Assembly: GCA_032718475.1 (NCBI GenBank)
Contig: JAUCBJ010007885.1
Location: 1-32,978 of the forward strand
Source: Nemertoderma westbladi
Lineage: Eukaryota; Animalia; Xenacoelomorpha
Length of the DNA stretch: 32,978 bases
Direction: 5' to 3'
Of the stretch, positions 6,264 to 32,978 are shown in pieces. The translations under genes and the position numbers were made by a program. Positions within the stretch are counted from its first letter, which is position 1, and every line of letters begins with the position of its first letter. A model generated the notes under the pieces. The model had not been told where the DNA came from and did no database searches. It was given only the letters and a program-made list of their open reading frames with translations.

Positions 6264-6344
6264 TATGACTATTTCCAAATGAATCATATTATATTGGCTA
6301 ACTATTATCTGTATGATCAAACACTTCAGACTAATATTACTTAC

Positions 6345-9300: not shown

Positions 9301-9847
9301 GTACTCAGCCACCGTACTCAGCCACATTCAGCCACGGTACTCAGCCACATTCAGCCACCGTACTCAGCCACATTCAGCCACGGTACTCAGCCACATTCAG
9401 CCACGGTACTCAGCCACATTCAGCCACCGTTATCTCCCCCTAGCCATGTGTGCTTAGAGCTACAATTATAGTCCACAACTCTCGTCCCCTAACCAGTAAA
9501 ATATACTAGACTAGCGTAATATGCCATCCGAGAGAATAATTAAATTCTGAACTGAATAAACATTCCAATATAAATACATATTACCTGAATGTAATTTTAC
9601 AGATCGCATTACAGATATTTAGGAAAAAATGACAACTATATCTCCCGGGCAATCATAGAAGAGTTCCCAATGACAAATTTATGCGAATTTTCTTAAAGTA
9701 TTTGTTTATAATAATGATGACACTTACACATGTATTCTTCCAAATCAGAGGCGACGGCTATCAAAGTATATTTTCTTGGTTTCTTATTAACCATAAGACG
9801 AATTACTTCAAACATCACAGACATTCCGCTCCCATCATCATCAACAC
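6345..9847 (-). CDS. M28 family Zn-peptidase (YfbL-like), five internal exons: 9847-9728, 7643-7510, 7217-6998, 6898-6794, 6433-6345; first and last exons not found
   Basis: All introns are GT-AG with consistent phases (1,0,1,1). The spliced ~222 aa contains GVDDDGSG, DLEEYMLIGAQVF, VDTMMNW..PNSQ, LLRADHARFW, AIFITDTGELRG and CYHKQCDD, the ordered M28 motifs. Confidence 0.88.
8121..8246. mobile_element. Small (~126 bp) inverted-repeat element (MITE-like) in M28 intron
   Basis: ATTTAAATAAAGTATCTGTATTTCAC pairs imperfectly with GTGAAATACAGTGCTACTCTGTTTAAAT, around a central GCTTACGCTCG motif. Confidence 0.5.
8360..8556. repeat. 21-bp minisatellite, ~9 copies
   Basis: Unit GAGCCAGGCTCAAGTCGCGGT, containing the palindrome GAGCC-A-GGCTC. 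Confidence 0.95.
8598..9429. repeat. 23-bp (10+13) minisatellite, ~36 copies
   Basis: Unit CAGCCACATT-CAGCCACCGTACT, with occasional doubled 13-mers. Confidence 0.95.
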
Positions 9848-9913
9848 CTGAATAAAATAATTATGAGTTACTACTTATACTATTCATTAATAATGTAATA
9901 TATCAAAATATGC

Positions 9914-13126: not shown

Positions 13127-14575
13127 TTAGTCTTTCTTGCGTGGACGGCGTTTACGCAGTTTTTTAAAGCTAGCCAGAGTCCTTTTCTCTTTGGGGCGAG
13201 CCACTTTACAAGGAGGGCTATAACTCCTGGGTGAAGGGTGCAATATGATTGCATCAGAGGGTGTAGGATTATGGTCGGTGTATCCGCCAGTCGAAGTACC
13301 GGGTTGATTGACATCATCGTCAGGGGAGAGAGGTCTAACGGCTTTGAGAGCTCGTTTCAAGGCAGCCGCTCTTACGGGTCCTTTACGAGTGGTCTGAACG
13401 AGGGCCGTGGGTGGACCATAGGCAGTTAGAAACCTCCGGGGTTTAATGGTCCTTTCCAACTCGCGTTCGCGGGCTCGGTATTCGTAAGGCCGTCGATATA
13501 CTTCCTGTAACTCAGGGTGTGAGTTAACAAACAAGTCTCCATAGTCCGGATCCTGACGGATATAATTGATTAAGTTATAGGAATGAAGGTCGCTAGGATT
13601 AACACTCCTGAGAAATTTGCGTACGAATTTGGTTGAAATACATTCTCCGACGCGCTTCAGTAGCTCGTAACTTGATATGCGTGATTTCTGTTCAACCGAA
13701 GCGAATAGATAAGGATGGAACGCATAAACTCCTTCGTAAGCGCGTCCGGGATAATAGCGATGGCGCGAATCACAATGTAAATCAGCGTTCGCTTCCCAAG
13801 CTCTGATGTAACGTAGTGTGATCATTTCATCTACGCTTTCCAAATCGTGATTAAAAGGGCAATCGAAACTGGCATGTCCCTTTAGTTGACAATGGTGACA
13901 TTGAGTCATAAATTGAGGGCAAACCGCAAAAATGTGCAAGTTATTGAATCTGCAATACGCACAATAAATTTCCATCGCCGGTTGTTCGTGGAAATAGGAA
14001 CAGCGGACGTTTGTGTCCATGGGCGTAACATGGTCTCTCGATGCGCATAACCGACAACGTTGCCGAGAAACATAGTTGGCATGGCGATAATCGTACGCAG
14101 TGAGACACTGTGGACCTTGATACCATTCTAGGATGTAATCGTTGTCGCTGTTCCGGGCGCGATAGGCTGAATCTCCTCAGATTCTAGACATATTGGTTCG
14201 TCTTCCCAGTCTGTTACGAATAGAATTTTCGTGATCTATTCTCGGTTTATCGTTACGACTCCGCTGGGTATGATATTTAAATAGAACCATTTCCCTTTCA
14301 GTGTCTACATCGTCCGTATCATGTAAATCGATAGGATGGCCGGTAGTTAGGAAGTCCATATACGTACTATTACGATGTGTATAGCGAGCGGTGAATTTTC
14401 GATAGTCCAATTCACGCGTAAGTTGCTCTTGGGACATCGGCGGTTCGATATAACGACCATCGTCCTCCGTAATGGTTGGATCGGCTTCATCGCGTATCAA
14501 GCTATCCACAAATGCTTGTAAAGGTAGAGTATATCGCTCCCTGATACCAAGATCATCTTCTATCAACTCCGTCAT
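13127..14575 (-). CDS. Accessory 3' ORF of the BEL element (~482 codons, one in-frame TGA at 14177-14179), Zn-knuckle protein with basic C-terminus
   Basis: ORFs 14177..14575 and 13127..14020 share a frame and the 156 nt between them is open. Contains CRLCASRDH...C, CAYCRFNNLHIFAVC and CHHCQLKGHASFDC, and ends KKLRKRRPRKKD. Confidence 0.7.
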
Positions 14576-15390
14576 ATCTGCTATCTGAGTTTATTAATAT
14601 TGTAATGAGTTTATGTTTAGGGGAGCGGGCGTCGCTGCCTACCTCTCTTCGCCCCGGACAGTGGGATTCTCAGCGCCGATGTACCGTCGTCGCGGTGTTT
14701 ACGCCAACATGTAGCAACATCACGACAACGATAACCGGCACAAGTCACTCCACTGTCCTTCCCAAAGGCTTGAATCCACTTTAGGTTCTTTCTATAGGAG
14801 AGTTGGGCTACTTTCACAATTGCGACTAGCTACTGTAAACACACCTTAGCAGTAACATTCACCTACAAACGCACAAATTCCACACAACTGTCACCAATTG
14901 TACACATACAGGCCATTTGTCCGTTAGTCAGTGCCTTCCAGAATGTCACGTTATTACTGTGTATCCTTGGATACTAACAGTGTGCTATGTATTCTCTATG
15001 CTATGCAACGTGACAAGCTTTCTATTGTTCTCTTAACTTGCTTCTAATTCTAGCGTGGGTGTTGCTATGGTGACATTATGGAATGCTAGCGGTAGAATTA
15101 GGGTAATTCTCATGCATACAGATCTGGGATGCTATTTAATAATAATTCTTTAATTGTCCATATCCTCTTTATGTATGATTTTATTAATTTTATCGGATAT
15201 TGACTGTATGTTGGAGATTCTCGCACTCTAATACACTCAATAGGATGAATCTCCGCTCCCATGATCTATCAATTAATGGAATTTTGGGAATGTTATAAAT
15301 TGTACAAAATGACAATTTATGAAATTCATTTAAATATGAATTTAAATTTATTCCCGTGAATTTTATTATTTGATGTTAAAATTGACACAA

Positions 15391-15680
15391 TTTGATTCCA
15401 GAGCAGGTCTGGGGACATAGGATCCTTAGTTCTATGACAATTGTCCTTTAAGAGTATTGGTAAGTGCTGCGATATCTTAATTGACTAGAAATTTAAAGGA
15501 TCTGAATTTTACAGATTTTACTAAATATTAAATTAATATTTAAGATGGGCACCGATTTATTCCAGAGCTTGTCTGGGGACGTTAACCACTGATTCTAGAA
15601 TTTGTCTTTCAAGTATATCGGTGGGTGCCGCGATATCTTAATCGACTAGAATTACAGATGGTCAAAAGGTTTAACAGATT
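15391..15680. repeat. Two diverged ~165-bp direct repeats in the BEL pol-to-accessory-ORF spacer
   Basis: ATTCCAGAGC..GTCTGGGGAC...GCGATATCTTAAT.GACTAGAA occurs at ~15395 and ~15559. Confidence 0.75.
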
Positions 15681-16112
15681 TATTTGCGTTTTACGCTACT
15701 GTTATATGGACATCACGCTACTATATGTATTATTTAATATAAGGTAGAAGAGCAATATCGCACGAAGCAATGTCAGTGTGAAGAGGCAAGTCGTTTCCAA
15801 GGTCTACCCAGAGCTTGGTTTAGCTGAGACACGAGGATCTGAACTTTGCATTCCTAATACTCTGCCTACCAATAATACTTGAATATAGTAGTGGCTTTAT
15901 TGTACTTTAAGAAGTACGGACATTTCATCTTACTGTAGTCACGTATTTATAATATGATACGGACAGTAAGGAAAGAGAAAAAATTATTTCTCGCCATCGC
16001 ACTAAATATATATTATAAGTAATTACGTACGTAATAAACACTAATATATTGCACTAATCTACTAAATAATCACTAAAATAACATTCTACTAAATAAAATT
16101 GAATAAAAACGA

Positions 16113-19100
16113 TTATAATAAAGTACATAATAAAGTTCGCATATAAAAATATAATAAAATAGATAAAACAATATAGTCATACACCCATTCCAGACGTATC
16201 ACGTTGGTTGGGGAGTCCCTAGATGTTTGAGGAATTAGGGAGGTGGTCGTGGGAAGAGTGTCTTGCCTTCCATAGTTTCCAGAGAGTTCTCTGTCTCTTT
16301 CCAGTAAACATAAACGACCAACTGGGCGATTGAGTTGTTGCGTCTCAAAGATTATGCCTGGCTTCTTGAAGTTACGCCGCATGACGACAAGTTCTACTGA
16401 GCGCACTAAACCATCATCCGAGATGTGAGTCTCGATGATACGACCTGTCTGCCACCGTTTACATGGGAGGTCTGGATCTACAATAAGTACCATATCTCCG
16501 GCGCTGACGTTTTCTTGCTGCACAAACCACTTAGTTCGAAGTTGTAGCGTGGGCAGATAATGTTTCTCGAAATGGTCAGCGAAACGACGGGATAGCAACT
16601 GCATAAGTTGCCAAGTTCGACGGCAGTATTCGTCTCCGTCGGCAATCTCCGATCGTGGGAGCATGGCTACAGGTTTCTTCAGTAGGAAGTGCGCGGGTGT
16701 TAGCGCTTCCAGGGAATCGGGACTCGATGAGACTGGCATAAGCGGTCTCTCGTTGAGATAGGCAGCTATTTCCTCCATTAACGTCCGCAAAAGTTCGTCG
16801 GTGAGATACGCGCGGCATGGCACTATAAAGTGAAATGCGGTTTTGACACTTCGAATTAATCTCTCCCAACTTCCTCCCCACCAAGGGGCGTCGGCAGCGT
16901 TGAAGGTCCAGCTAGACGCTGTTATCCTTAGCTGGTCGTCCACCTGTCTTTGGTTCCAGTCCTTCACGTAAGCCTGTATTTCGTTGTTGGCACCAATGAA
17001 GTTCGTTCCCTTATCCGATCTCATGGTATTACTCGTCCCGAAGCGAGCGATCTGTCGTCGTAAACTTAAGACGAAGCTGTTGGTAGATAGATCGTTCACC
17101 ATATCGAGATGGATGGCTCTACAAGTCATGCACACGAAGATGACACACCATCTCTTGACTATAGTCCTAGCACGATATACTTCAATAGGGCCAAATAAAT
17201 CTACACCAGTATTAGTAAAAGGTGGTTCATAGAAGCTTACTCGTTCCCTAGGTAGTTCTGCCTCTCGCTGTGTTAAAGGCCTACTGAATGCTTTCCTACA
17301 GGGTATGCAGTTCCTAAGAACTTGGTTCAGAGCTCTACGGGGTTTATCAAAATAATAGCGAGTTCGAATTTCGCTAAGAATTCGTTCTCTACCAGCATGA
17401 TAAAGTTTACTGTGAACATCTACAATCATCTTGATTTGTACTTCAAGATTTCTAATAAGTATGGGGAATTTGGTGTCAAAGGATAAGGGCGCATTGGTGA
17501 GTCTTCCTCCAACACGTATTAGCCCATCTATCATTGTGCTCGAGAATCGATCCCTTAAGCGCATCTGCGGATTTCTCAACAACAGGAAATACTTTTCGGA
17601 ATCCTCATAGCATTGCAGGAGTCTCAGTATCTGCTTATTGGTTTCTTCATGCTCCTGGTGACTAATTTTTTCCTTGAGAAAACGGTCAGATGTCTTATAT
17701 TTGGGTAAATTTTTAATAACATGAACTTGTGCAGATGTCAATGGAGCGTTATCACTAGTGGTCTTCGTCCTGGAGTAGTGATGATGAAAACATCGTCTTA
17801 AATATGTGACGGCTTTACAGAGCCGATTCCAGGAACTGTAATGATGCATTGCTCTCTGCAGCATGGGTGAGATTCCTTGCGAGACGTCTGGTATTCCAGA
17901 TTTCCAATCTTTATCTCTAATTTCCACAACAGACTTATTTGTGTTGAGGGATTGTGGATCCGAAGCATCATTCCCGGAAGTATGTAATACAGAGTGAGGA
18001 GGCCATTCATCCTCTTCCTTGCTCAGGAAGTCGGGTCCACCCAACCAATCTGGAGTATCTATCAGTTCCTGTGGAGTTGCTCCCCTGGAGGCGATATCGG
18101 CTGGATTAATCGTACCAGGCCAATGTCTCCATTGATCTATCTTTGTGCGACTAAGAATAATAGCTACCCTGTTAGTAACAAAAACGCTGAACTGACAGAC
18201 TTCATTGGTTAGATATTCCAACACGAGTAAAGCGTCGGTCCAATAAACCGTTTTCTCCAGTGTATAGTCGATTTGTTCCGTTACGTTCCGGCCGATGGCT
18301 GTAGCGTATAAAGCCGCCTTTAACTCCGCTCGAGGAACCTTTAACTTGTTGTGAATCAATGCCTTAGAGGTAACCAAGGCGACTTTGATTCCATCCGGAG
18401 TTTCAACTCGCAGATATGCTACTATACCTATTCCCATGTCGCTGGCGTCTCCAAACACATGGAGTTGATAAGAATACGTAGGAAGAACATGGCCAAAATA
18501 TGCACGGGAAATTATAAAGTTCTCGATGGCAGGTAGAGAATCTTCCCATTTCATCCATTTCTTTAACAATTCTCCCTTAAGCGGATCGTCCCATGAGTGG
18601 TTTTCAAGCCACATTTGTTGTACTAAACTCCGAGCAATCAATATAACTGGGCTAATAAATCCCAATGGGTCGAAATAAGTGCTCAGGATACTTAAACAAA
18701 TCCGTTTGGTCCGAACTGGATTATCTCGCTGTTTTAACTGAAAAAACAGGATGTCTCTTTCAGTGTCCCACTTCAAGCCAAGCGTCTTGGTTTCAAGAAG
18801 ATCGTCCTTTATTAAGTCTAGGTCTTTCGCTCCTCGGTCTGCTACCGGTATCGCTTCCAGAAACTCACGGGAGTTGCTGGTGAATTTCGTCAGTCGAAAT
18901 CCACCTCTTTTCAAACACTCTACCGTTCCTTTTGCGACATCTATGGCTTCTTCTACTGATGGAAGGGACCTTAAATTGTCGTCCATGTATATATTCCGTT
19001 TGATGTTGTCTATCACCTCCTTTGAGAAGGAGTCTCGGTTGTCATTCGCAGTGGTTCGCACCACGGAGCAGGCGTTGGAAGGGCTTGATATGATTCCAAA

Positions 19101-21065
19101 AGCCTGGATGGTCATCCAGTACTCTACCGGTTTCTGATTGAGGTCTCCTTCCGGCCACCACAGAAATCTCAGGCTGTCTCTATCTCTATCCAGCGCCTTG
19201 ACTTGTAAGAACATTCCTTCTATATCGGAGGCGAACGCGATGGAATATTGTCTTAATCTTAAAAGTATTCCCAACAAAGATTGGAGTAAGTTGGGTCCTG
19301 GTAACAACTCGGAATTGAGGGATTGGCCCATATATAGGGCGGAGCCATCGAATACGACTCGTACTTCGTGGGGTTTACCGGGTTTGGGAACGTAATGATG
19401 TGTTAAGTAATACGTTCTCTCAGTCACTGGTGTTCCTTGCGGTACTCGCTCCGCGTATCCCTTTGTTATAAATTTCTTCAGCTGAGTTTGGTACATTTCT
19501 TTCGCTGAAGCGTTAGCTGTAAGGCGTCGATGTAATTGAGCGATTCTTTTCTCTGCCAAGGGTCTGTTATTTATAAATCTAGGTTCTCGTTTTCGAAATG
19601 GTAGGCCGATTTCATATCTACCTTGGTCCTTTAAAAAACGTGTAGTTGTTTCCTGGATTTGCTTGGCTCTTTCTTCTTCTATCGATAGAGCCTTATCATA
19701 TGAATTGGGCTCTACCAGTTCCTGAGTAAAGAATCGTACGGCTAGTTCGTCCCGAGTTCTAGCGTTGTAGCGCTCTATCTCATCGTTTAGTTCGTCATTG
19801 TAAGCGATGGGTTCCGATGGGCGAATCAGTTGACATAGGTTCACCTGGTTTTCTGTAAGTAGGTCGATTGTGTTCTCTTCATCGAAGAGTTGGTAGATGT
19901 CGTCATTATCTGAGGAGTATGGTGTTCCCTCAGTTAGTTCGTCCACCTCACTGCTCTCCACTTCCCAATCATTTACTTGGTATATTTGTTCTTGTGGCAT
20001 TCTCTCTTCGAGAGTCCTGCGGGAAGGGCCAGTAAAGTACCAACCTACTCTAGTTCTTACCGCATAGGTTTGCAGTGGCTGTGGTTGAGCAGGCCGTTTC
20101 TCCAATGTTTCGAGCGCCTCATGCGCGTTTTGGCCGATGAGTATTTGCACTCCAGGATAATCTGTCTGGAATCGAGGTATCTTAAGATGTTGGATGCTCT
20201 CATCCTCGTCCCAATTATAAAGGTCTGCTTGAGTAGTAGCAAAGTTCTTTATAGCTACTATTTTTACCGACCTTATACCTTGTGCTCCTAACTTATCCTG
20301 GGGGGTGGACAACACACCTACATAGTAATCTGCCGTTAGGGTAGATTTCCAAACCTGCATAATTCCTGACATATTCAATTTAGTCCGGAATTTGGGTTGT
20401 CCAGCAAAGATATCTTCGGCTAATTCTTGATCGATGAATGTTCCTGTGCTGCCGGAGTCAAGGAGTGCGTTCACTATGTAACTGTGGTTAGGACCGTGAA
20501 CTCTTACCTGCACTACAGGAAATTCTCTGATTCCTACGTTGGAAGTTGGAGCTTTCCAAGATGGTTGTTTGGCAAAAGTAGTTGGGGGAAACTCATTGTT
20601 GTTGTCCTTTTCATAAGTAAGTGCTCGATACACTGCGGTATTGATTAGATAACAGGATTCGTTGGCGTCGGAGAATTCGTCAGTATAGAATCCTTCCATC
20701 TCAGATTCTTGATCAGTGTCGTTTACATCACTGAATTGGACATGTAGTTCGGGCTCACTTACCTGACTCAGTTTGTCTCGTTCGAACTCACTGTGTAACA
20801 AGATGTGATGTTTCGCGCCACACTTTGCACACTTTATGTCGGAGTAACAGGTTCGCCGTTGGTGTCCTGGTCTGAGGCGATTATAGCATAACCGCTTATC
20901 CCATACGACTGCACGTCTGTCTACAAGGGATTTCTTTAGAAATTCAGCACACGCACTCAAACGGTGGGTCCCGTCGCACAGCGCACAGTTAGGTTTTATG
21001 TTACTCACTTTACCTTGGGTAACTTGATGCACTCTCGTTTTTTCTTCGGGTTTTCTTCGGTGCAT
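16113..21065 (-). CDS. pol: BEL/Pao gag C-terminus (Zn knuckles) + pol polyprotein (PR, RT, RNase H, IN)
   Basis: Knuckles CALCDGTHRLSAC / CYNRLRPGH..C / CAKCGAKHHILLH; protease LLDSGS; RT RVVFDGS, DIEGMFLQV, YMDD; RNase H LHVFGDAS, YWTD, NPADIASRG; integrase HHCC, GVDLFGP, RSDKGTNF, PWWGGSWERL. Confidence 0.95.
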   Translation of the reverse strand: MHRRKPEEKTRVHQVTQGKVSNIKPNCALCDGTHRLSACAEFLKKSLVDRRAVVWDKRLCYNRLRPGHQRRTCYSDIKCAKCGAKHHILLHSEFERDKLSQVSEPELHVQFSDVNDTDQESEMEGFYTDEFSDANESCYLINTAVYRALTYEKDNNNEFPPTTFAKQPSWKAPTSNVGIREFPVVQVRVHGPNHSYIVNALLDSGSTGTFIDQELAEDIFAGQPKFRTKLNMSGIMQVWKSTLTADYYVGVLSTPQDKLGAQGIRSVKIVAIKNFATTQADLYNWDEDESIQHLKIPRFQTDYPGVQILIGQNAHEALETLEKRPAQPQPLQTYAVRTRVGWYFTGPSRRTLEERMPQEQIYQVNDWEVESSEVDELTEGTPYSSDNDDIYQLFDEENTIDLLTENQVNLCQLIRPSEPIAYNDELNDEIERYNARTRDELAVRFFTQELVEPNSYDKALSIEEERAKQIQETTTRFLKDQGRYEIGLPFRKREPRFINNRPLAEKRIAQLHRRLTANASAKEMYQTQLKKFITKGYAERVPQGTPVTERTYYLTHHYVPKPGKPHEVRVVFDGSALYMGQSLNSELLPGPNLLQSLLGILLRLRQYSIAFASDIEGMFLQVKALDRDRDSLRFLWWPEGDLNQKPVEYWMTIQAFGIISSPSNACSVVRTTANDNRDSFSKEVIDNIKRNIYMDDNLRSLPSVEEAIDVAKGTVECLKRGGFRLTKFTSNSREFLEAIPVADRGAKDLDLIKDDLLETKTLGLKWDTERDILFFQLKQRDNPVRTKRICLSILSTYFDPLGFISPVILIARSLVQQMWLENHSWDDPLKGELLKKWMKWEDSLPAIENFIISRAYFGHVLPTYSYQLHVFGDASDMGIGIVAYLRVETPDGIKVALVTSKALIHNKLKVPRAELKAALYATAIGRNVTEQIDYTLEKTVYWTDALLVLEYLTNEVCQFSVFVTNRVAIILSRTKIDQWRHWPGTINPADIASRGATPQELIDTPDWLGGPDFLSKEEDEWPPHSVLHTSGNDASDPQSLNTNKSVVEIRDKDWKSGIPDVSQGISPMLQRAMHHYSSWNRLCKAVTYLRRCFHHHYSRTKTTSDNAPLTSAQVHVIKNLPKYKTSDRFLKEKISHQEHEETNKQILRLLQCYEDSEKYFLLLRNPQMRLRDRFSSTMIDGLIRVGGRLTNAPLSFDTKFPILIRNLEVQIKMIVDVHSKLYHAGRERILSEIRTRYYFDKPRRALNQVLRNCIPCRKAFSRPLTQREAELPRERVSFYEPPFTNTGVDLFGPIEVYRARTIVKRWCVIFVCMTCRAIHLDMVNDLSTNSFVLSLRRQIARFGTSNTMRSDKGTNFIGANNEIQAYVKDWNQRQVDDQLRITASSWTFNAADAPWWGGSWERLIRSVKTAFHFIVPCRAYLTDELLRTLMEEIAAYLNERPLMPVSSSPDSLEALTPAHFLLKKPVAMLPRSEIADGDEYCRRTWQLMQLLSRRFADHFEKHYLPTLQLRTKWFVQQENVSAGDMVLIVDPDLPCKRWQTGRIIETHISDDGLVRSVELVVMRRNFKKPGIIFETQQLNRPVGRLCLLERDRELSGNYGRQDTLPTTTSLIPQTSRDSPTNVIRLEWVYDYIVLSILLYFYMRTLLCTLL

Positions 21066-21136
21066 TCTGTTAGGAGACTGAGGAGGGGTCTTGGCAACCT
21101 GTTCTCTCCTATCGTTGTTTCGAGCCTTGTATTTAC

Positions 21137-22207
21137 TTACGTCTTTTGAGGTTTTGTCAACGTAGTAAATCGATCGGTGTCTTTCCCGCTGTCCTCTTCT
21201 TGAGAAGCTTGGCTTTCGCCGTCGTCAGTGTAACACACCGGTGTTACTCTTCTCCTAGAAGCGGGTTTCTCACTTACCTTATTTTCCGATGTTTTCTCTC
21301 TGGACTGCTTGATGAGTTGTAGTTTTACTTCACCATCTAAGAAGGACATGAGATCAGCCATGGTAGGACTTCGTCGTTGTTGTTCATTCATGTACAACAC
21401 TTTCTTGTCCCAGCGTGTACATACTCCACCCTTTGGTAAAGTAGAGACTACGGCTCCAATAACCATGGAACTCTGATATTCATGAGACTTACCTAACCAG
21501 TCCAATTGTCTACAGATTTCCTGAATCTCATCGGAAAACTCTATAATCCCGCTACTAAGGAAGTGTCGGGGGGCTACTAATTTTGCATACAAATACTTAG
21601 CTATGTTATCCTTGTTACCATACCTGATGTTTAATGTATCCCATACTTGTCTTAATCCTTCTGGATGTCCAATAAACTTTAACGCCATTAACCTGGGAGG
21701 TCCTTCCAAGCACTTGATGAGGAACCTAAGTTTCTCTCCGTTAGATAGTACAGAGTTTTGTATGCTATCTTTGTAATATTCGTTGAAAGGTAACCATTTC
21801 ATCTCATCTCCATTGAATTTGACGATCTCTCCCACTTTGACCGCTTGGCGGGCTTCTGTTCTAGCCATCTGACGCATAAAGCTTTCTTGGGCCATCGTGT
21901 TATTTAATATCGAATTATCGGTATATAAATTTCTCGGATCATTATCAGGTCTATAGGGAATATCATTAACAACAGGTCTATAATCACCCTTAATAGGGTT
22001 TGCTATAGGAGTTTCTACTTCACTAGCAGTATAGATGCGTGTAGGCTCCACACCTTGCGCATGTAATACTTCAGACCTAACAGGTTGACACAATTTTACA
22101 GGGGGTATTGGTATCCCTTTTTGGATATTGACTAATTTGTCGCGTTCTAGCGCGATACTTTGCTGCACTTCTTGCAATTCGGCCCTACCTTCCCTTACTG
22201 TTCCCTT
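21137..22207 (-). pseudogene. gag: BEL/Pao gag (DUF1759-like region), 5'-truncated and frameshifted relative to pol
   Basis: KFNGDEMKWLPF...LSNGEKLRFLIKCLEG...WDTLNIRYG motif. The frame is open up to the TTAA junction and stops at 21137; the downstream ORF is in the -1 frame. Confidence 0.88.
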
Positions 22208-22209
22208 AA

Positions 22210-23764
22210 CCCTATTAGTACCGGGCTATAAAATGTTGTACAAATACCGGGGAGGGGTCATATTGACCCCCCCCCCTCTAAAATCTACAAATATTTACGA
22301 AAACGTCTGATTTTTTGTTTGTACGTAGGTATCACTTGTCTGGATCCGACCGAAAAAAAAAATTTTCGAAAAAATGTACTGGGGTGGTTATATTGCAGCA
22401 CCAAAATTACAAGTAGTGCAGAATTTTCACCAAATTTGAAAGTTACATTTTCGGCTAATTATTTTTCAATACAGGTTTTCTGGGGTGCAAAATACATTGG
22501 AAAATATTAAAAAATGATATGATTACTATAAATGGCTGTTTAGTCCTCTCTGCGTAGGAAAAAAATGAAAAAAACAAGTAACCAGCACTTTTCAGTTAGA
22601 ACACAAAATTTGTAATTCACTTATACGATGCTATAAATTCACATTTTCAGGTTTTTGAGGGCGCTGATTCTAATGGAATACATTTCTAATATGCCAGATC
22701 ATTGCTACTTGTATTTTTCGGCGTAATTTGGCAAATTTTGGTGCTAGCACCAAATTTCGTACCCATCACCAAAAAGTACAAGTTTGCGATGTCCAGTGCT
22801 GTTTTTATTGATTCCATCGGATTCAGGACCCTCATAAACCCGTATAACGCAAGAAACAAGGTGATACTATCTACTTATCAATTTGCCTATTTTCCAAAAT
22901 TTGGTGCTGGCACAACAATTTTCACCCACCGGCGAAAAATACAAGTTTGAGAACTCTTATGAAATTTTTACTGATTCCATTGAATTCAGAACCATCACAA
23001 ACCCGTATAACGCAAGAAACAATGTGACACAATCAATTGATATATTTGATGGTTTTCAAAATTTGGTGCTAGCACCAAATTTTGCACCCACATCCGAAAA
23101 ATACAAGTTAGAGATGTCTAGATCGATAATTATATTTTCCATTGAATTCAGAACAGCCATAAACCTCTAAAACGCAAGAAATAAATTGTCACAAGCAATT
23201 TTATCTATTGAATGGATTTTCAAAATTTCGTGCTAGCACCAAAATTTGCACACAGCACCGAAAAATACAAGTTTGATACGCTTGGTGCAACTCGTATATA
23301 TTTCATCGAATCCAGAAACAAAAAAAACCCCAATTGCGTAAAAAACAAGTTTCAAACGATCAATTTACAAAATTGACTTATTTCGAAATTTGGTGCTGGC
23401 ACCAAAATTTGGCACCCGCCGAAAAAAACAAGTTTGAAATTTCTAAATCAATTTATATGAATTCCATCAAATTTCTAACACCAAAAAACCGGTGTAAATC
23501 AAAAATAGAGATGTTACAATTCATATTTAATGAAATGTAATTTTCAAAAAACGTCTCAAAAAAAGTGCTAAAAGTAGGGTTAAAAAATGGTGCTATAACT
23601 CGAAAAGTACCCAATATTTTTGAAAACGGTTTTCACTACTAGGAAGACAATAGATTTTTAGGAAAAGTCATAAAATTTCAGATTCCCAACTGCCTTTGTT
23701 TCAGAATTATAATAAAAAAACCACGGGGGGGGTCATATTGACCCCCCCCCCGGGTTTAATAGGG
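22210..23764. mobile_element. Non-autonomous piggyBac-type DNA transposon (TTAA at both ends)
   Basis: TTAA|CCCTATTAGTACCGGG ... CCCGGGTTTAATAGGG|TTAA (13/16 TIR match). Subterminal palindrome GGGGTCATATTGACCCC at 22254 and 23729. No transposase. Confidence 0.85.
22730..23530. repeat. Five diverged ~163-bp tandem units, each with the palindrome AAATTTGGTGCTAGCACCAAATTT
   Basis: Palindrome cores at 22741, 22904, 23066, 23230 and 23393 (spacing 162-164). The sequence between cores is also homologous. Confidence 0.9.
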
Positions 23765-24996
23765 TTAAATTGAAAGATAAATGTTAGTCACGTAATGAGA
23801 GTATCTCCTGGCGTTAGTTATTGAATTCGAATCTGCTAATTTAATATTGCTACTGCTAAATTAATATCAAAATGTATTTTACTCATCATTTCAATAAATA
23901 CATACTTACATAATTTTAATATCTTTTGTGATTACACACGTTTATATTACTTTGATTTTATTTGGACCATTTGAGGTCTGGAATATTGAAGAATTGAAAA
24001 TCTCGCCTCATTGTTAAATAAACAATTAATGGAAAGGAGCAGGTCACAATGGCTCGTTATTCTAACAATACAAAAATTTAATTTAATAGAACAGGTAACA
24101 ACAGTTCAGCTGTTATTTACCCAGGATTTTCCCCTGGAGGAGAGGAATTAATTTTGATTGCATCGAAAGTCCCCCTAGCTAGCTGTCATGGTTAGAAACT
24201 CTGTGACAAGGTTTCATTTCCTTAGACTTAATTAAATATTACAAACCTATATAAAGTGTCCATATAGGGTAATTTATTTATCAACACTAAATGGCCAGTG
24301 TTATACAGTAGTTCCGGGCATACAGAGAAATCAAATTTACATTGATCTGGCCATAATGGCGAATTTCCACATGATATTGACTACGGATTTATGGCCACAG
24401 TGGCCATGGCAGAGAAGATATCACATTAAAAGATGCAAGCCCACAACTAAAGTGATTTCTTACATTTATTTAATCTGTATGGGTACAGGCAGCTAGCTAT
24501 AATAATAGTTCTCATCGGAAATTTGTATTTTTTTTAGATAATACAATGTAGAGATGTTATATACTAGTCTTGTTTGGATTTACAGTAATTTTGAGAGTTA
24601 AATGAATTCAAAGTTACATTTGAAGAATAATTTAGAAGTTAATGAGATCATCATGCTAACAATTTTATTGTGAGTACCCGAAGCTACAGTATGTTAGTCA
24701 CGTAATGAGAGTAGGCCTATCTCCTGACTTTTAGTTATTGAATTGGGGATCTGCTTGTTTGGGGTATGATTACAATAATGAAAAAAAATACTGTTGGTAA
24801 AGTAACGGCAATTATTGTTTATGGTTAGAAACGCTGTTACAAAGTTTCAATTCCTTAGACTAAATTACATATCCCAAATCTATATAAAGTGTCCATATAT
24901 AGGGTAAATTTAACTCAACACTACTTAATGAACAGTGTTTTGTAGTTCCAGGCATACCGAGATATCAAAATTTATTTGATATGGCCGTATAGTGGC

Positions 24997-25988
24997 GACC
25001 GACCGACCGACCGACCGACCGACCGACCGACCGACCGACCGACCGACCGACCGACCGACCGACCGACCGACCGACCGACCGACCGACCGACCGACCGACC
25101 GACCGACCGACCGACCGACCGACCGACCGACCGACCGACCGACCGACCGACCGACCGACCGACCGACCGACCGACCGACCGACCGACCGACCGACCGACC
25201 GACCGACCGACCGACCGACCGACCGACCGACCGACCGACCGACCGACCGACCGACCGACCGACCGACCGACCGACCGACCGACCGACCGACCGACCGACC
25301 GACCGACCGACCGACCGACCGACCGACCGACCGACCGACCGACCGACCGACCGACCGACCGACCGACCGACCGACCGACCGACCGACCGACCGACCGACC
25401 GACCGACCGACCGACCGACCGACCGACCGACCGACCGACCGACCGACCGACCGACCGACCGACCGACCGACCGACCGACCGACCGACCGACCGACCGACC
25501 GACCGACCGACCGACCGACCGACCGACCGACCGACCGACCGACCGACCGACCGACCGACCGACCGACCGACCGACCGACCGACCGACCGACCGACCGACC
25601 GACCGACCGACCGACCGACCGACCGACCGACCGACCGACCGACCGACCGACCGACCGACCGACCGACCGACCGACCGACCGACCGACCGACCGACCGACC
25701 GACCGACCGACCGACCGACCGACCGACCGACCGACCGACCGACCGACCGACCGACCGACCGACCGACCGACCGACCGACCGACCGACCGACCGACCGACC
25801 GACCGACCGACCGACCGACCGACCGACCGACCGACCGACCGACCGACCGACCGACCGACCGACCGACCGACCGACCGACCGACCGACCGACCGACCGACC
25901 GACCGACCGACCGACCGACCGACCGACCGACCGACCGACCGACCGACCGACCGACCGACCGACCGACCGACCGACCGACCGACCGACC
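24997..25988. repeat. Perfect (GACC)n microsatellite, ~248 units
   Basis: Uninterrupted for 992 bp, followed by a few TTAAATACAGA(C) units. Confidence 0.99.
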
Positions 25989-26413
25989 TTAAATACAGAT
26001 TTAAATACAGACCTTAAATACAGACAGATTAAATATACAGTATGTAAGAAATCACTTTAGTTGTGGGCTTTCATCTTTTATGGTGATATCTTCTGTGCCA
26101 TTTCTCTGTATGGCCACTGTGGCCATAAATGCGTAGTCAATATCATGTGGAAATTCGCCATTATGGCCAGATCAATGTAAATTTGATTTCTCAGTATGCC
26201 TGGAACTACTGTACACTGGCCATTTAGTGTTGATTAATAAATTACCCTATATGGACACTTTATGTAGGTTTGTGATATATAATTTAGTCTAAGGAATTGA
26301 AACTTTGTCATAGCGTTTCTAACCATGACGGATAGCTAGGGGGATTTACGATGCAATCAAAATTAATCCCTCTCCAGGTACTTTGCTGTACTTTGCAGTT
26401 AAGCCCAATGCAA

Positions 26414-26568
26414 TGTGAAGAATACAGGTTTTCACTAAAAATGCAGGTTACAGAAGGGCTGAATCTAACCAAAACAATAAACGATTTAGTATCTGTAGAG
26501 GTTATATTCTTCATATATACAATTCCAATAAAATTTCGACCGAAAGTAAAAACCTGGTATTCTTCACA
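26414..26568. repeat. Short inverted-repeat-bounded segment (MITE-like)
   Basis: TGTGAAGAATACAGGTTTT pairs with AAAACCTGGTATTCTTCACA. It interrupts the inverted homology to 24050-24135, and a related motif occurs at ~27113-27140. Confidence 0.45.
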
Positions 26569-27662
26569 CGGCAAAAAAACAGCTGATTACTCGAAAAAAT
26601 GAAACTGTAACATGTTCTACTGACTTTAGTTTATTATTTTGGTTAGAATAACGTGATGACGAATAATGAATGATCAATGATGAATAATTAAAAGCGTCAT
26701 CTCATCGCTTTTTACTCTATACCAAAAGGGACATTTTTCCAGCTATAAGAATACTTATTTCCCTGATTTATGTGTTTTCACTGTATGGAAACTGTGACCT
26801 TTGAGACTTACCCAATTCCGTCGAAATTTGCCACTATGGCCATATCAAATAAAGTTTGATATCTCGGTATGCCTGTGTGCCTGGAACTACATACTGTATA
26901 ATACTGGCCATTTAGTGTTGATATAAAGTTACCCTATATGGACACTTTATATAGATTTGAGATATATCATTTCGCGTTAGTCTATTTAAACGTTTGTAAC
27001 ATTATTTTTTCATTTGTAATCATATCCGAATTCATACCCCAAACAAGTAGTTTCCCAATTCAATAACTAACGTCATGTAAAGTACACCAAACTTTCTGCT
27101 GTTATATTTCACTTCGCAGTTTTCCCCATGTGAAGAATACTACGTAGGCCACTACCCGGCAGCACCACCACCACCCCCCCCCCCCCCCCCCCCCCCCCTT
27201 ATCACAATTTCGTTAATAATGTAGTACGCCCTAAGACATATTTTGCTGGGTTAAATTGTTTTTGATTTTGAAATAGGATATTTTGAAGAGAATAATTTTG
27301 TCATTCTAAATATGTTACGTTTGGCTACTGGTATGAAAGTTATCATATTAAATCTTTATCTTGAAAACAGGTGTTTTCAAAGCAATATAATTGAAGTTCA
27401 TCATTGTCTTAATGGAATATTAGATTTCTGTTGTATTGTTGTAATATTCATCCGCGTTAATGCAGTAGTACCATGGCCATGGTAGTACAGTAAATGCAGT
27501 GCTGCAAACTTGTTCTCTCTTACCGGTAGTCTGAATGAAAGTCGTAGGCCTAACAGCCTAAAGCTGTAAAGCATTTCAGCATTTAGCCCTTAACTTCACA
27601 TTTGCGCATTTCCTAAATGCATTTCCTTTAGGCCTACATAATTAACCTTGGCGCTTGGCATA

Positions 27663-30600
27663 ATGTTCTCCGTGGTGAAGTTTATTGTCGATAATAGTCT
27701 ATTAACAGTCCCGACCCGTTGGTTGTCGACTGATAATGAGGTGGATGGAAATGGCGAAACGGTACGGGTAACTTACTGCCCTTACCCTTCAAACATCCAG
27801 AGATTATCTAATGAAAAGTTTAAAAAACTTAGGAAACAATCAATGTTGGAACCATCTGATATGCTGGACTGGGAACATTACGATGTTTTTATTATCGATC
27901 AAAAAGGTAAGCCTCTAGCTGTCTAGCTCTACTGAATAATTACCGGTACATGTCTGCCTGTACAGGTGACAGGTAGGGTAGCCTGGCAGACCTTTACCTA
28001 CCGGCAGATATTTTTAGTAAAACACTGTAAAAAGTACCGGTCTGCCGGTAGCCCTAAAGTAAAGTGAAGTAAATTTTCTTCGGCCGTTAGGCCGGGGGCG
28101 GGTTTACACACAAAGTCTGACGACTTATTTCCAGTGCGGTCCCCCCAGAACTTTACTCCCCAGAGGAAACTGCAGTACCTGTACCCATTTAGCTACCAAT
28201 TAAGGATGAAAGGCTCAGATGCGCCCTGGCTAGTCCCCTTTAAAGCATTCGTGCCGAAACGAAAACTGCCCTTGCCCATGTGGCATGTGGGGGGGGGGGG
28301 GGGGGGGGGGGATTGAACCCGCGACCTACAGAGAGATGTGAATTCAATGCAAATGCAACCACTACACCAAGGTATTTAACTGTTACCAGTTTTACCACTA
28401 CACCAAGTGGGACCGGGTTGACGACCTACTACAGTACTATGCTTTACTTTAGATAACGGTACCATGAGTTTAATTTATATTACAGATTCGTTCAACCTGG
28501 CGGAGGAACAATTGATTAGAGCCAAGGATTGCTTTACACCTTCGAAAAAAAGAGCAGTTGTTCCCGTTCAAAGGTAAGAACTATGATGTAAAGGCATGAG
28601 CATCATATTGGCTGGTTAAAATATATCTCCTTATGTGAATGAGTGAGTCTACAATACCGGTAGTAGGTTAGGGCGATGTAATACTGGTCTCATTGTTAGG
28701 TTTAGGTGGTCATTGAATTAAAGATAGGGTCAACTGGGGGAATTTGGGACATAAAACATTTTAGAAAAATATGTGAAAAATGTACAGGGTAAAATGTGTA
28801 GGGTGTAAAATGTACTAGTTGCTAGTTTTGTATATTGGGTGATTTCAAAGCGCATCAGTGATCAGTATGCTACAACAGGTAGCCTACTGATACAGACAGA
28901 CAAAAAACTGAAAATAGTAAAGCACAAACAGTTGCGTGTACCAGTGTGGGCAGTCTAAAATGCTTTTTTTTTACTATTTTCAGTTTTCAGAGGTACCGGT
29001 ATAGCTAACATCTGAACAGTCAGTGTTCGGCTGTTGCAGTCTTTGTATCCTTTATTTATTTATTAGTCATACTATTTTTTTACAATCACAATATTTATTT
29101 TTTAAACCTATAGCCTATATGATGTCCCAAATTACGCCTAACGTATAGGAAGCTAAATTTTTTCATGGATGTATGGCTATTATTATATATTATTATTATT
29201 ATGTTATTATTAATTATTATATATTTTTCTTATTTATATGATAATATGTACAGATCTGATATAGGCCTACCGGTATTTAAGAGAACTGTACGCCCTGAAA
29301 TTCAGTGAATTGCGTCCTGCAATGAACTTTATATATTTGCAGGGGTTCATTCGTTTATTCGTCCGGGCGAATAGATACACCGGTTAATACAATTCAAAAT
29401 CGAAATACTCTTATTGAGTTGGGGCTAGATCTCGATCGAGGTGAGTCAGGTGAATTTTGTTACCGGTACCAGCATTTTTAGTCAAATACCTAACCCTATG
29501 TAAGCATTGAGCATTTTTGCATGACAGTTTTAATTAGGATTGGGGGCTGACTAACCATGCCCAAAATAATGAACCAATAATACTCTAGCTCCCCCCCCCC
29601 CCCCCCCCCCTAGCCTGTTCAAATTCACTGTACAAACTCATAAATTAATAATATTTTAGTAATTCTGTATTGCTGTATTAATTGTATACTTGTATACGTA
29701 ACTGTACGGTCTGGTCTGGTGTAGCATTTTTCGGCACCTGAAACATGACTGTTCCTTAATTTTTAGTTTCATTAGCTCAACACCAATTAATTTATTACAG
29801 ATAACAGCGTCGCACCACCTAACTTAGAAGAACCAGAAAGTTTATTGGATGAAGTTGATGGAAGTTCAGAAATACCACCTGACTTAGAAGAACTAGAAAG
29901 TTTATTGGATGAAGATGATGGAAGTTCAGAAAAACATGGAGGTACCGGTATTTAAACTTTTTAAAATAGACTATCGGGTAGACAGACAGACAGCCAAGCC
30001 ATATATCGAGAAGTAAAATATAATCTTGCTTAGAGTCCGTTCAAATGTCGATGGTGTTTTTCTAAGTGTCACAAACGCCAGTTTCATAACAAAGGGCACA
30101 TTCCATCCTTCCTTACTGTGATTGTATATTTTGTTGTCCTATATTTTAACGCAGATCCATCGGTTAACGCTTCTGCATCGTGGCATGATGTTCCACAACC
30201 AACTACACTGCCGAACGCAGGCATTGCCATGCAACAGATGGCCAACAATGACACATGTTACCAGGGTGTCGGTGATATTTTTCAGGAGCTTGATGCGGCC
30301 ACGACACAGGAGGAGTTTGATGCGGCCACGACACAGGAGGAGTTTGATGCGGCCACGACACAGGAGGAGTTTGATGCGGCTACGACCCAGCAGAATGGTT
30401 GGTATCATATCTGTTAGCGGCGTAGATTAGACCCCAGAATCTACCCCCTCAGTTTGTTGGTAATATATAATTTAGCTTACTAGTTATACTACATTTATTA
30501 TTTACTATTTCTGGCGTAGTTGGTCTTTTCCTAAATGCGGCCCTGCCTATACCCCACCCCCGGGCGGGGTGGGTGGGGTATAACTTATTCGCGTAAATAC

Positions 30601-32978
30601 AGTAAGATACATGTTTGTGGGGCTTTCGCGCAGCACGAGACTCAGTTAACCTGAGAAGCTGTAATCTATAGTACTTGCAACCAATCCACTTCTCAGCTGA
30701 GCTTCTATATACAGTAAGTATGTAAACATCAACCGGGCCAGCATACACCTGCCTCTCTTATGAATGCAATTAGTGGATGGAGGGACAATTTGTAAATTTC
30801 CCGCCCAGGTACGGCGTCTAGACGAAGTGGATATTTAGCGCCTCCTAGTGACGGACCGTGAAATTGTGGGAAGCTATAAACTCTATGTACTCATTGAATT
30901 ACGAATATTCCATACGTCAATCTGTGAAAGTTTCATCAAAATTGATGCAATGCTAAAGTTATTAAACCTAGACGAAGTGATGCGGTACCGCTAGAATACC
31001 TACCGGTACCGACTGACAGACTGTCTGATTTTTGACCAAACCTCATATTCTTTCTAAACTTTTGACGTACTACATACAGTACATACAAAGTTTGGTTTAA
31101 TATCATCAAGGAATTACAAAGTTATTAGTGATCAAAAGTTAGACGTGTGACGACTACGACAGACAACTCGTTAATGGTACCCATATGCTAAGGCTTCGCT
31201 CACTTCGTGGCTCGACAATACAGTCCCAGTCAGTTATATATTGAGTTGATTATACATTAACTTAGTTCAGATAAGCCCTCCAGTATTCAAATTATTTATA
31301 CTTCATTATATAATTTGTTTTTTTCTCCGTAGATTGCATTGATACCAATGGAGATTGTGATGATGTTTCCATGCCACAAAAATCAAAAGACTCTCATATA
31401 CCTAGAATCTGTAAACTCTGTCACAAAGAAACGCTTCGAATTAATGATCATCTACGCAATCGACACCAAATACAACATGCCGGGGTTTTAAGCCGGCTGT
31501 CTCTGGAGAGTAAAGAACTATATTTTAAGAAATCTGGTGTGATAAGATTATATAAAAGTGGTAAAAAGAAACCGAATCGTCGAATATCGCGGTGCTTAAT
31601 TTGCAATAAATGTTTTTATAAGATTGGTGACCATCTGACTTGTAAACACAATCTTCTACCCGGAGATCCAGAGCGTGAACGAATGTTACATGATCCAAGT
31701 CGTTATATACTACCTGCTATTGACGCTGGTGAACCAGGTGAACCTCCTATGATGGATCAATTTATGGATTATTTGAAAGCAGATTATAATGAAGAATCAT
31801 TAAAAGAAAGAGAGAGGGATATCTTAATGATAGCTTCGAGTGTGAGAACATTCTTTAAACATATGGGTGATAATAAAGAGAACTACATACTAAGGTTCGA
31901 TGAGATAAGTGATCCACAAAAATTACATAATGCATACTGTCAAGTAGCTTCTGAGAAAATTCGTGGTGGTGGCACCCGGTCTGCCAATACACTGAAAGCC
32001 GTACTAAGGAGACTTCAGAGATACTTTGAATTTCTTGTCTTAAATGATGTTAGCGGGGCCGTGAAAGGCCTGACAGTGACAAAAGATTTACAACGGCGAC
32101 AGAAGTCCGATGTTAGAAAGCACGCCTATACAGTTCGCCAAAGGGCTACGGAAACCATGCCTACAGCTGAGGAGATAAATAAGTTTCAGACGTCTTCATA
32201 TATTGATAAAATTCGCGACAATATTACAAGGTTACCTGACGTTGATGACAAAGACGAACTGACAGAAATGCAAACGTATCTTATAAGTCTAATAATATAC
32301 GACCTGGGATTGCGAGAGTGTGTTGTAAAGAACTTAAAAGTGAAACATTTCAAGGAGGGTTTTGTAACCACAGATATCAGCGGTAATAATGTGTTTATTT
32401 TTCAAGTACCAAATCACAAGACCTCAGGATTTTATGGACCACAGAAAATTATCATTAGCTATAAGGATTACGTTTTATTAAAGAAATGGGTTTATATCGG
32501 TCGCACATTATACACTTCTCGTACGTTGTCTTCTGATTCAAGTTTCGTATTTGTGACACGTAATGGAGAGCAACTTAACAACACCAGCATCCCACTTAAT
32601 AACCTGTGGCAAAAACTCGTCCCAGGTTCCAAGTCGAAGGCAGGATCGACTAGTTTTCGGCACGCCAAGAGTTTTTTCAACCAAAGACTACCAGGAGAAG
32701 TCCATGAAAAAGAAAACGCTGCTCACTCAATGGGTCATTCTAGGGAAACACAATTACGGATATATGAGGCTGTTCAGTCAACCAGTGAGGCTTTATCAGC
32801 ACGTGATAGACATCAAAGGGCATTCAACTTTGCTCTTTCACATCCTGGTTCTACTGCTCCAGACACCAATGCTATAGGACCAGATTCCAATGCTACAGGA
32901 CCAGATTCCAATGCTACAGGACCAGATTCCAATGCTACAGGACCAGATTCCAATGCTACAGGACCAGATTCCAATGCT
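27663..32978 (+). CDS. Six-exon gene encoding a C2H2 zinc-finger tyrosine recombinase (Crypton-like); exons 27663-27906, 28486-28573, 29343-29440, 29801-29941, 30155-30397, 31333->32978; >=820 aa, 3' end outside window
   Basis: All introns are GT-AG with matching phases (1,2,1,1,1) and the spliced frame has no stop. The last exon holds CKLC..HLRNRH and CLIC..HLTCKH, then GLR (R 32313), HKT (K 32418), FVFVTRNG, STSFRH (R 32658), MGH (H 32736) and IY (Y 32763). The recombinase exon is high confidence; upstream exon linkage is moderate. Confidence 0.82.
28055..28376 (-). mobile_element. tRNA-derived SINE in intron 1 of the recombinase gene
   Basis: Minus strand shows A box TGGTGTAGTGG (28369-28359), B box GGTTCAATCC (28319-28310), a central GAGCCTTTCATCCTT...TAAATGGGTAC resembling conserved SINE central domains, and a (TTTAC)n-like tail. 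Confidence 0.8.
28725..29145. mobile_element. Putative decayed MITE in intron 2
   Basis: 12-bp inverted pair AATTTGGGACAT (28741) / ATGTCCCAAATT (29122); outer ends are degenerate. Confidence 0.35.
30770..31220 (+). mobile_element. Putative Helitron/Helentron-derived (DINE-1/HINE-like) non-autonomous repeat in intron 5
   Basis: Internal ~150-170-bp degenerate repeats (AAGTTATTA...TAGACG.. near 30819, 30969, 31140), AAAGTTTCATCAAAAT, GACAGACA, and a terminal GCTTCGCTCACTTCGTGGCTCG hairpin-like motif. Confidence 0.4.
32859..32978 (+). repeat. 21-bp coding minisatellite (GPDSNAT)n in the recombinase C-terminal tail
   Basis: Unit GGACCAGATTCCAATGCTACA, in frame, continuing past the window end. 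Confidence 0.92.

Follow-up and report, generated by a model that had tools for sequence, protein, structure and literature searches.

The last exon in the DNA analysed here (the window, 32,978 nucleotides of a contig from Nemertoderma westbladi) encodes a tyrosine recombinase (YR) that likely serves as the transposase of a low-copy, intron-containing, YR-only DNA element. The protein very probably belongs to the nimavirus-related family of zinc-finger YRs, within which we assess it as a deep new branch of a known, barely described group. YR-only eukaryotic elements and nimaviral integrases are already known; new in this protein are a predicted N-terminal extension and a repeat tail, neither of which is seen in the relatives examined.

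This exon, exon 6 of the gene, starts at position 31333, behind a polypyrimidine-AG acceptor, and extends over 1646 nt up to the end of the window. The plus-strand frame 31314-32978 has no stop across 555 codons, and the chance of 515 open non-repeat codons at the local base make-up is approximately 1e-16. With residue numbers counted from 31314, the features of the exon are as follows.

31333-32978, + strand: exon 6 (fingers, core-binding domain, catalytic YR domain and repeat tail); stop-free, continues beyond the window.
31410-31466, + strand: C2H2-like finger 1, C33-x2-C36-x9-H46-x4-H51, from the sequence; 2 short strands and a helix in the model.
31593-31649, + strand: C2H2-like finger 2, C94-x2-C97-x9-H107-x4-H112, from the sequence and the model.
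31740-32042, + strand: core-binding (SAM-like) helical domain, from superposition of the model on Cre and XerH and a profile match to the XerA N-domain.
32166-32840, + strand: YR catalytic domain, from profile, model and alignment with relatives.
32313, 32418, 32649, 32658, 32736 and 32763, + strand: catalytic positions R334, K369, T446 (replacing His II), R449, H475 and Y484, respectively.
32859-32978, + strand: 21-nt coding minisatellite (GPDSNAT)n, from repeat detection; the end of the array lies outside the window.

The catalytic motifs occur in the contexts H368-K369-T370 and T446-x-x-R449, and the stretch RSANTLKAVLRRLQRYFEFL occupies residues 222-241. Because the last 120 nt consist of the 21-nt coding repeat, the window contains the whole of the recombinase proper, the tail being the one part that continues beyond it. 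The minisatellite is very deep in all 4 sequencing runs described below; its interpretation as a separate satellite or target was set aside, since its depth tracks that of the YR exon (44-62x, three DNA runs), as expected for a coding repeat inside a gene. Two or more finger motifs of this type are present in 19 of the 62 relatives introduced below and one in a further 13, and a Pfam scan of the query gives the fingers no score. The initial annotation had described a stop-free 1646-nt exon with two tandem CxxC-x9-HxxxxH fingers, a helical core-binding-like region at RSANTLKAVLRRLQRYFEFL, the catalytic R, K, R, H and Y, and Thr in place of the first His of HxxR. All of these elements are found, the core-binding domain also being seen in the model, but the fingers, lying 42 residues apart and having a 9-residue spacer, do not form a Kruppel-type tandem array.

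The query alone retrieved nothing relevant from Pfam, NCBIfam, PHROGs or PDB sequences, and word-based searches of proteins recovered nothing related to the YR, the same type of search with a profile returning one bacterial XerD-like protein. The profile of the query and 62 relatives matched XerA (E 7e-12) and XerD (1e-5), as well as XerC-like chains, with the R, K, xxR, H and Y positions paired with those of Xer. The best Foldseek matches of the AlphaFold model (pLDDT 86.7) were all Cre, Xer or Tn1549 Int, and structural alignment yielded Z scores of 17.2 for XerH (rmsd 4.5, 299 residues aligned) and 15.7 for Cre (about 300 residues), spanning the core-binding and catalytic domains, such that the model from residue 117 on corresponds to Cre from residue 20 on and to XerH from residue 13 on. 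Matches among viral structures are diverse integrases with 10-16% identity, none of them close. Thus, profile, Foldseek and structural alignment all give the YR fold, consistent with the identity originally proposed.

The 5 catalytic residues are conserved among the 62 relatives (R334 in 61, K369 in 62, R449 in 60, H475 in 57 and Y484 in 55). The 2 positions that are less strictly kept in YRs, His II and Glu/Asp I, are both missing from the query, which has Thr and Val, respectively. The former position is His in none of the 62 relatives and Thr in 43, indicating that Thr at His II is a family trait rather than a sign of decay, and the latter is Glu or Asp in 2 of 62. In Cre, all replacements of His289 leave the enzyme active in vivo except 5 (to Asp, Glu, Lys, Arg or Trp), whereas E176V has very weak activity (PMC2943603). 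Given that 5 of the 7 active-site positions are kept and that Cre tolerates most changes at His II, catalysis by the query is plausible on sequence grounds, in line with the competence suggested in the initial annotation.

The relatives were gathered by an exhaustive HMMER search (E<=0.001) among 1.84 billion representatives, which produced 63 matches, none better than 1e-10. The top match, a bacterial tail fibre without shared motifs, was dropped as false, leaving 62 relatives that are 22-32% identical to the query and many of which have weak matches to Pfam Phage_integrase. Names were checked for 30 of the 63 matches, most of which carry none. The closest named kin, overlooked in the initial annotation, are the C2H2-bearing integrases of endogenous nimaviruses: a protein of Penaeus japonicus (E 1.1e-6 in the HMMER search; 27% identity over 247 residues) falls into a 90% cluster with a protein whose name is tyrosine recombinase of Marsupenaeus japonicus endogenous nimavirus. 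Uncharacterised proteins of Nematostella, Actinostola, Gambusia and Artemia, the last of these fused to SET, make up the other named relatives, and the relatives span cnidarians, fish and crustaceans. The Atlas neighbours of the query are unnamed chordate and arthropod clusters (0.95-0.97). A profile of 18 metagenome YRs, from which the query was excluded, scored 52.5 bits against the query, 82 against the nimaviral YR and 13 against a bacterial XerD-like protein.

The YRs of endogenous nimaviruses, both telomere-associated and 28S-associated, combine C2H2, SAM-like and YR parts with 5 of 7 key residues, are termed arm-binding-domain YRs, and have been linked to integration into telomere repeats or 28S rDNA (Kawato et al., PMC10871703). 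They were found to be distinct from the YRs of DIRS, Enterprise, CryptonA/F/I/S, nudiviruses and NCLDV; CryptonV is absent from the comparison set in the available part of PMC10871703. The same work mentions further YR-like proteins of decapods outside nimaviruses and reports that some nimaviral YR genes are multi-exon and that endogenous nimavirus copies are nearly identical to one another. PMC10871703 treats the family, and no account of its host elements was found in the literature, although Repbase reports, the 2020 Kojima review or bioRxiv supplements may hold one; the accessible portions of PMC6431247, PMC13465017 and PMC11296320 contain nothing specific to the family. The query forms a long branch without a clear position in 2 quick trees and does not group with the nimaviral YRs; a forced clade of the two has a p-AU of 0.50, being neither rejected nor shown in such quick trees with many long branches. 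The trees were computed without Crypton, DIRS and Starship sequences, short rows and rows lacking the HKT motif were omitted, and one of the trees is based on 36 chosen rows.

Five upstream exons with GT-AG ends and exon 6 form one stop-free frame of at least 820 codons. The upstream exons and the repeats in the introns between them are located as follows.

27663-27906, + strand: predicted exon 1, with ATG, 81 codons and a small unnamed domain; GT donor, linked to exon 2 on a single contig of run X4.
27908-28359, no strand assigned: high-copy repeat in intron 1; summed contig depth thousands-fold above the flanks.
28486-28573, + strand: exon 2; AG/GT ends, exon 1-2 join in X4.
29343-29440, + strand: predicted exon 3; AG/GT ends, open frame, not covered by X4 contigs.
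29801-29941, + strand: predicted exon 4, acidic, with two 60-nt repeats; AG/GT ends, open frame, absent from RNA-like contigs.
30155-30397, + strand: predicted exon 5, acidic, with four 27-nt repeats; AG/GT ends, open frame, absent from RNA-like contigs.
30600-31214, no strand assigned: high-copy repeat(s) in intron 5, from depth and many loose ends at 31000, 31029, 31163 and 31214.

The presence of introns, claimed in the initial annotation, is supported by these in-frame GT-AG exons, with the exon 1-2 join seen in one contig of the public run X4 and the joins 2-3 to 5-6 predicted. X4 is regarded as RNA-like solely because one contig skips a GT-AG intron and the introns are uncovered, and its coverage of exon 6, of which 31387-32894 lies on a single contig, looks like transcription. 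The first 42 letters of that contig consist of exon 1 up to 27774 and 12 other letters, 9 of which copy 31394-31402. The resulting 27774-31387 junction, found in this one contig only, lacks exons 2-5 and has a stop immediately ahead of the YR. Templated inserts are a signature of repair, and the junction represents either a deletion copy with such an insert or an artefact of cDNA; it does show the YR and exon 1 together as parts of a single unit. Exon 1 has no Pfam match, no homologue in the word-based search and no match in the 80 relative loci described below; it may resemble the N-terminal domain of DUF4806-type transposon accessory proteins, a resemblance that received no support from the present searches. 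The Atlas neighbours of exon 1 are short unnamed eukaryotic proteins, a weak indication of its nature.

Copy state was assessed in three DNA runs from 2 samples (X1, X2 and X3) and in X4, with contigs compared at 80% identity or more. All three DNA runs hold exon 6 almost unchanged, and no diverged copy over 31222-32858 was found in them except for one 31-nt chance match, bearing in mind that contigs can drop rare variants. The absence of diverged copies is unlike an old transposon family, and the data are compatible with a single locus as well as with a few near-identical copies. X1 may be the run from which the window derives. The window is separated from X3 and X4 by 4 differences, all synonymous (chance approximately 0.003 taken alone). 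The 5 within-run variants, namely N422S in X2 and, occurring jointly in X1 and X3, E478D, I483T, E485D and S495A, all alter the protein. Overall, 4 of 9 differences are therefore synonymous, which is unremarkable (p 0.12). X2 displays bubbles at about 14% and 51%. Compared with 26-29.5 kb, the depth of the YR exon is 4-8x in X1 and X3 and about equal in X2; with the high-copy repeats as reference, the YR exon keeps a steady depth and the variation is in the upstream part, GC content not being the explanation. Contig depth is not equivalent to copy number, and nothing firm is drawn from it. Two introns carry high-copy repeats and the frame is intact, which fits a long residence of the gene. Runs of organisms B and C contain next to no words of the gene, which carries no weight.

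The surroundings of the gene include one region of potential relevance to its mobility.

23781-27070, no strand assigned: candidate left-end region, with a (CGAC)n array at 24996-25988 and related modules facing the array from both sides.

Four related modules face this 1-kb array, which ends 1.7 kb ahead of exon 1. The array draws attention since microsatellites serve some CryptonV families as insertion sites (PMC8869645). It is connected to the YR gene by no end or empty site, and no pair of direct repeats that would delimit an element was found in the window. An arrangement of two elements inserted head to head in the array was considered and set aside, as the flanking modules end at different points and meet opposite repeat strands. 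Further upstream are satellites, a BEL/Pao element on the opposite strand and a TTAA-flanked inverted-repeat element (22205-23770), and the reverse transcriptase (RT) at 1765-2739 is a broken piece located 25 kb from exon 1. No viral gene was detected in the 31 kb upstream of the YR exon. The initial statement that no DIRS RT or RNase H is adjacent holds within the window, with none upstream on the strand of the gene.

Relatives in other animals behave like transposon families, with several deep paralogues in each assembly, both intact and broken. One Nematostella cluster is found on three different large contigs. For one subclade, 105 loci were collected from metagenome contigs, and the 80 that were kept fall into 41 groups at 80% identity. 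An open frame of at least 700 residues with two spaced fingers is present in 27 of the 80 loci, 28 of the 80 are split over several frames, intact paralogues within single assemblies are only 32-42% identical, and dN/dS is 0.26-0.63 in 11 of 13 pairs of relatives (2 pairs were not computable). The analysis of 145 representative neighbouring frames, comprising at least 110 codons so that short exons would escape, revealed no viral family and no recurring RT; the 12 with Pfam matches comprise 2 RT pieces, 2 RNase H pieces, 2 DDE transposase pieces, a kinase, an OB-fold and 4 weak matches. Behind the YR, loci L067-L070 have an RPA-like OB-fold and kinase frame, L072 has a 1610-codon frame of unknown kind, and L004 has an RNase H fragment directly adjoining. 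No element ends or common microsatellite flanks were found among the 80 relatives. As these loci represent one subclade that is approximately 25% identical to the query, their behaviour may not apply to the query.

By analogy with the chemistry of Cre, XerH and lambda, 4 subunits of the recombinase would bring two core sites together. Y484 would become linked through a 3'-phosphotyrosine bond, with R334, K369, R449 and H475 holding it, and after strands are exchanged twice, by way of a Holliday junction, the element would be released or inserted with no need for terminal inverted repeats. In this way, the element may leave its site as a circle and enter a new one at a preferred target, probably a repeated sequence. 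As in nimaviral YRs, the two fingers could bind accessory sites or the target itself, which, judging from nimaviruses and CryptonV, might be a microsatellite, telomere repeat or rDNA. The corresponding model for Cryptons, circle excision followed by site-specific re-insertion, has been proposed and not demonstrated (PMC13565253).

Several other readings deserve consideration. The gene may have been domesticated from such an element and be a single-copy gene of the host, binding DNA by its fingers and core-binding domain and perhaps still nicking or recombining DNA for the host, which we consider possible, if doubtful. Domestication would account for diverged copies being absent from the three DNA runs, for the between-run differences being synonymous in 4 of 4 cases, as under selection on a useful gene, for the repeat insertions in the introns, for the predicted fusion to five upstream exons and for the coverage of exon 6 in the RNA-like run. 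However, old domestications have orthologues, and no close relative was found elsewhere among the 1.84 billion representatives (best 22-32%); furthermore, the catalytic residues are kept, whereas domesticated Crypton genes mostly lose them (PMC3212892), and the X2 bubbles together with the X1/X3 variant exceed one diploid locus unless animals were pooled. More ambitiously, the YR could be the lead gene of a large cargo-carrying DNA element, an animal counterpart of Starships, with its left end at (CGAC)n and the facing modules acting as finger-binding arm sites, and the family could be an animal reservoir of repeat-targeting integrases that was a source for nimaviruses more than once. Hints of this are the OB-fold and kinase frame in L067-L070, the 1610-codon frame in L072 and the SET fusion in Artemia, but this reading appears rather unlikely.

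It is unlikely that the query is an integrase gene bordering an endogenous large DNA virus or giant element that extends past the window end, even though the sole named homologue is a nimavirus integrase and the YR gene is the first after the 1-kb microsatellite and is directed toward DNA beyond the window. Near-identical endogenous nimavirus copies would also explain the absence of diverged copies, and some nimaviral YR genes are multi-exon (PMC10871703). The introns here are host-like and full of repeats. The 31 kb upstream are without a viral gene, five scans of viral contigs produced no relative, none of the 80 relatives has an adjoining viral family, and neither quick tree joins the query to the nimaviral YRs, the p-AU of 0.50 leaving the forced clade neither rejected nor shown. 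In DIRS-type elements, the RT precedes the YR, and the upstream DNA has none on the same strand, the 1765-2739 piece being broken and 25 kb off and the BEL element lying on the opposite strand. Combined with the five predicted introns and the scarcity of RT and RNase H (2 of 145 neighbouring frames of relatives each), this makes it very improbable that the YR belongs to a DIRS/Ngaro/VIPER-like retroelement with its RT past the window end, even though the downstream DNA lies beyond the window and an RNase H fragment follows the YR of L004.

A transposase of a low-copy YR-only element, which we favour, would fall in a poorly charted area, because animal YR-driven DNA elements are poorly described and their mechanism is not demonstrated (PMC13565253). 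The family connects host elements of cnidarians, fish, crustaceans and other marine animals with the integrases credited for nimavirus placement in telomere repeats and rDNA, and through it the origin of the nimaviral integrases and the basis of repeat targeting become testable. An intact, expressed-looking, two-finger member can be assayed for the DNA that it binds and recombines, and a natural animal recombinase targeting repeats would serve as a genome tool. If the query is a member of CryptonV, the gain would lie in describing the structure and catalysis of a group known chiefly through Repbase.

The assignment as Crypton-like made in the initial annotation stands only if the term is taken loosely, for any YR-only DNA element, whereas neither the query nor the 63 matches carry the Pfam marks of CryptonA or Starship. 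Specifically, DUF3504 of CryptonA has no match in the query (E<=1) or the 63 search matches (E<=0.01), and neither GCR1_C of CryptonF, with the far end of the query tail lying outside the window, nor DUF3435 of Starship matches the query or the 63 search matches. By the tests run, the query is not CryptonA, CryptonF or Starship and, with the downstream DNA outside the window, very probably not DIRS. CryptonA/I/F/S elements have a YR without RT, may have introns and are not expected to have terminal inverted repeats (Kojima and Jurka 2011, PMC3212892). Animal CryptonA and CryptonI lack a C-terminal domain (PMC3212892), whereas the query family has N-terminal fingers and varied C-terminal parts, such as SET in Artemia and the repeat tail in the query. 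CryptonV elements are YR-only DNA transposons first described from cnidarians, some of them residing in microsatellites (PMC8869645, PMC4455052). Similarly, relatives of the query occur in several copies in Nematostella and also exist in fish, and the query has a microsatellite on its upstream side; whether the query family and CryptonV of Repbase, compared by description alone, are one and the same could go either way. Starship captains are likewise eukaryotic YRs, with zinc fingers in some members, and the Atlas lists DUF3435 clusters at 0.91, a weak likeness, but they have only 135-138 of 256 features in common with the query, which is in the range of distant relatives, and no cargo is seen here.

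Cre, XerH and Tn1549 Int share with the query the core-binding plus catalytic fold over about 300 residues. They are 11-17% identical to the query, whose family lacks His II and Glu/Asp I and which has the fingers in addition. The nimaviral YRs are closer, sharing the layout of finger(s), SAM-like domain and YR, 5 of 7 key residues (the available part of PMC10871703 leaves unstated which 5) and detectable sequence similarity. Upstream of the query there is no viral gene, telomere repeat or rDNA, the downstream DNA being outside the window. Compared with the nimaviral YRs, the query is only 27% identical over the catalytic half, forms its own long branch, and has a predicted N-terminal extension of approximately 270 residues encoded by five exons and a (GPDSNAT)n tail.

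The DNA surrounding the tyrosine recombinase (YR) gene, within the window, carries several other repeats and elements:

1765-2739: LINE-like element, its reverse transcriptase broken over two frames
8365-9430 and 9913-11803: tandem arrays with periods of 21, 23 and 33/61/94 nt
13127-22225, minus strand: BEL/Pao retrotransposon, with a gag piece, a pol frame of 1703 codons and, downstream of it, two further frames
22205-23770: non-autonomous element, TTAA-flanked, with ends in inverted orientation and 163-nt repeats inside
23781-27070: four related modules (76-89% alike) and a (CGAC)n array

The gag of the BEL/Pao element is truncated on its 5' side by the neighbouring element, and one of the two frames downstream of pol encodes zinc knuckles; a search for a pair of LTRs belonging to this retrotransposon found none. 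The TTAA-flanked element is presumably piggyBac-like. The (CGAC)n array is perfect over 993 nt, and the modules on both sides point toward it, forming a loose palindrome. Depth suggests that the four modules are low-copy.

Comparison of the YR gene with contigs from the sequencing runs revealed a variant in 2 DNA runs, X1 and X3, with 4 amino-acid changes (E478D, I483T, E485D and S495A), all inside 50 nt (32747-32796). These surround the catalytic tyrosine, Y484, the remaining exon being near-identical, and the variant may have arisen by conversion, with an unseen paralogue as donor. In the same 2 runs, contig depth is several-fold lower over the 5' part of the gene (26100-29500) than over the 3' part (29700-32858), a gap that is absent in the DNA run X2. 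A single contig of the RNA-like run X4 joins exon 1 to exon 6 (27774 / 31387) through a 12-nt insert, 9 letters of which copy 31394-31402; the junction keeps the frame, yet creates a stop immediately 5' of the YR.

Among relatives from the nimavirus-type C2H2 YR family, metagenome loci L067-L070 carry two frames 3' of a broken YR, on its strand, one for an RPA-like OB-fold and the other for a protein kinase:

L067:3438-3827 and L068:6591-8252, YR strand: frames 3' of the broken family YR (OB-fold, kinase)

At L072, a broken family YR is followed on its own strand by a 1610-codon frame (5602-10431) that matches nothing in Pfam. The family members themselves differ at their C-termini: those of Artemia (P0025, P0074 and P0075) end in a SET domain, whereas annelid/cnidarian-like loci have another conserved domain in common, with an RLKYERR-like motif at its end.
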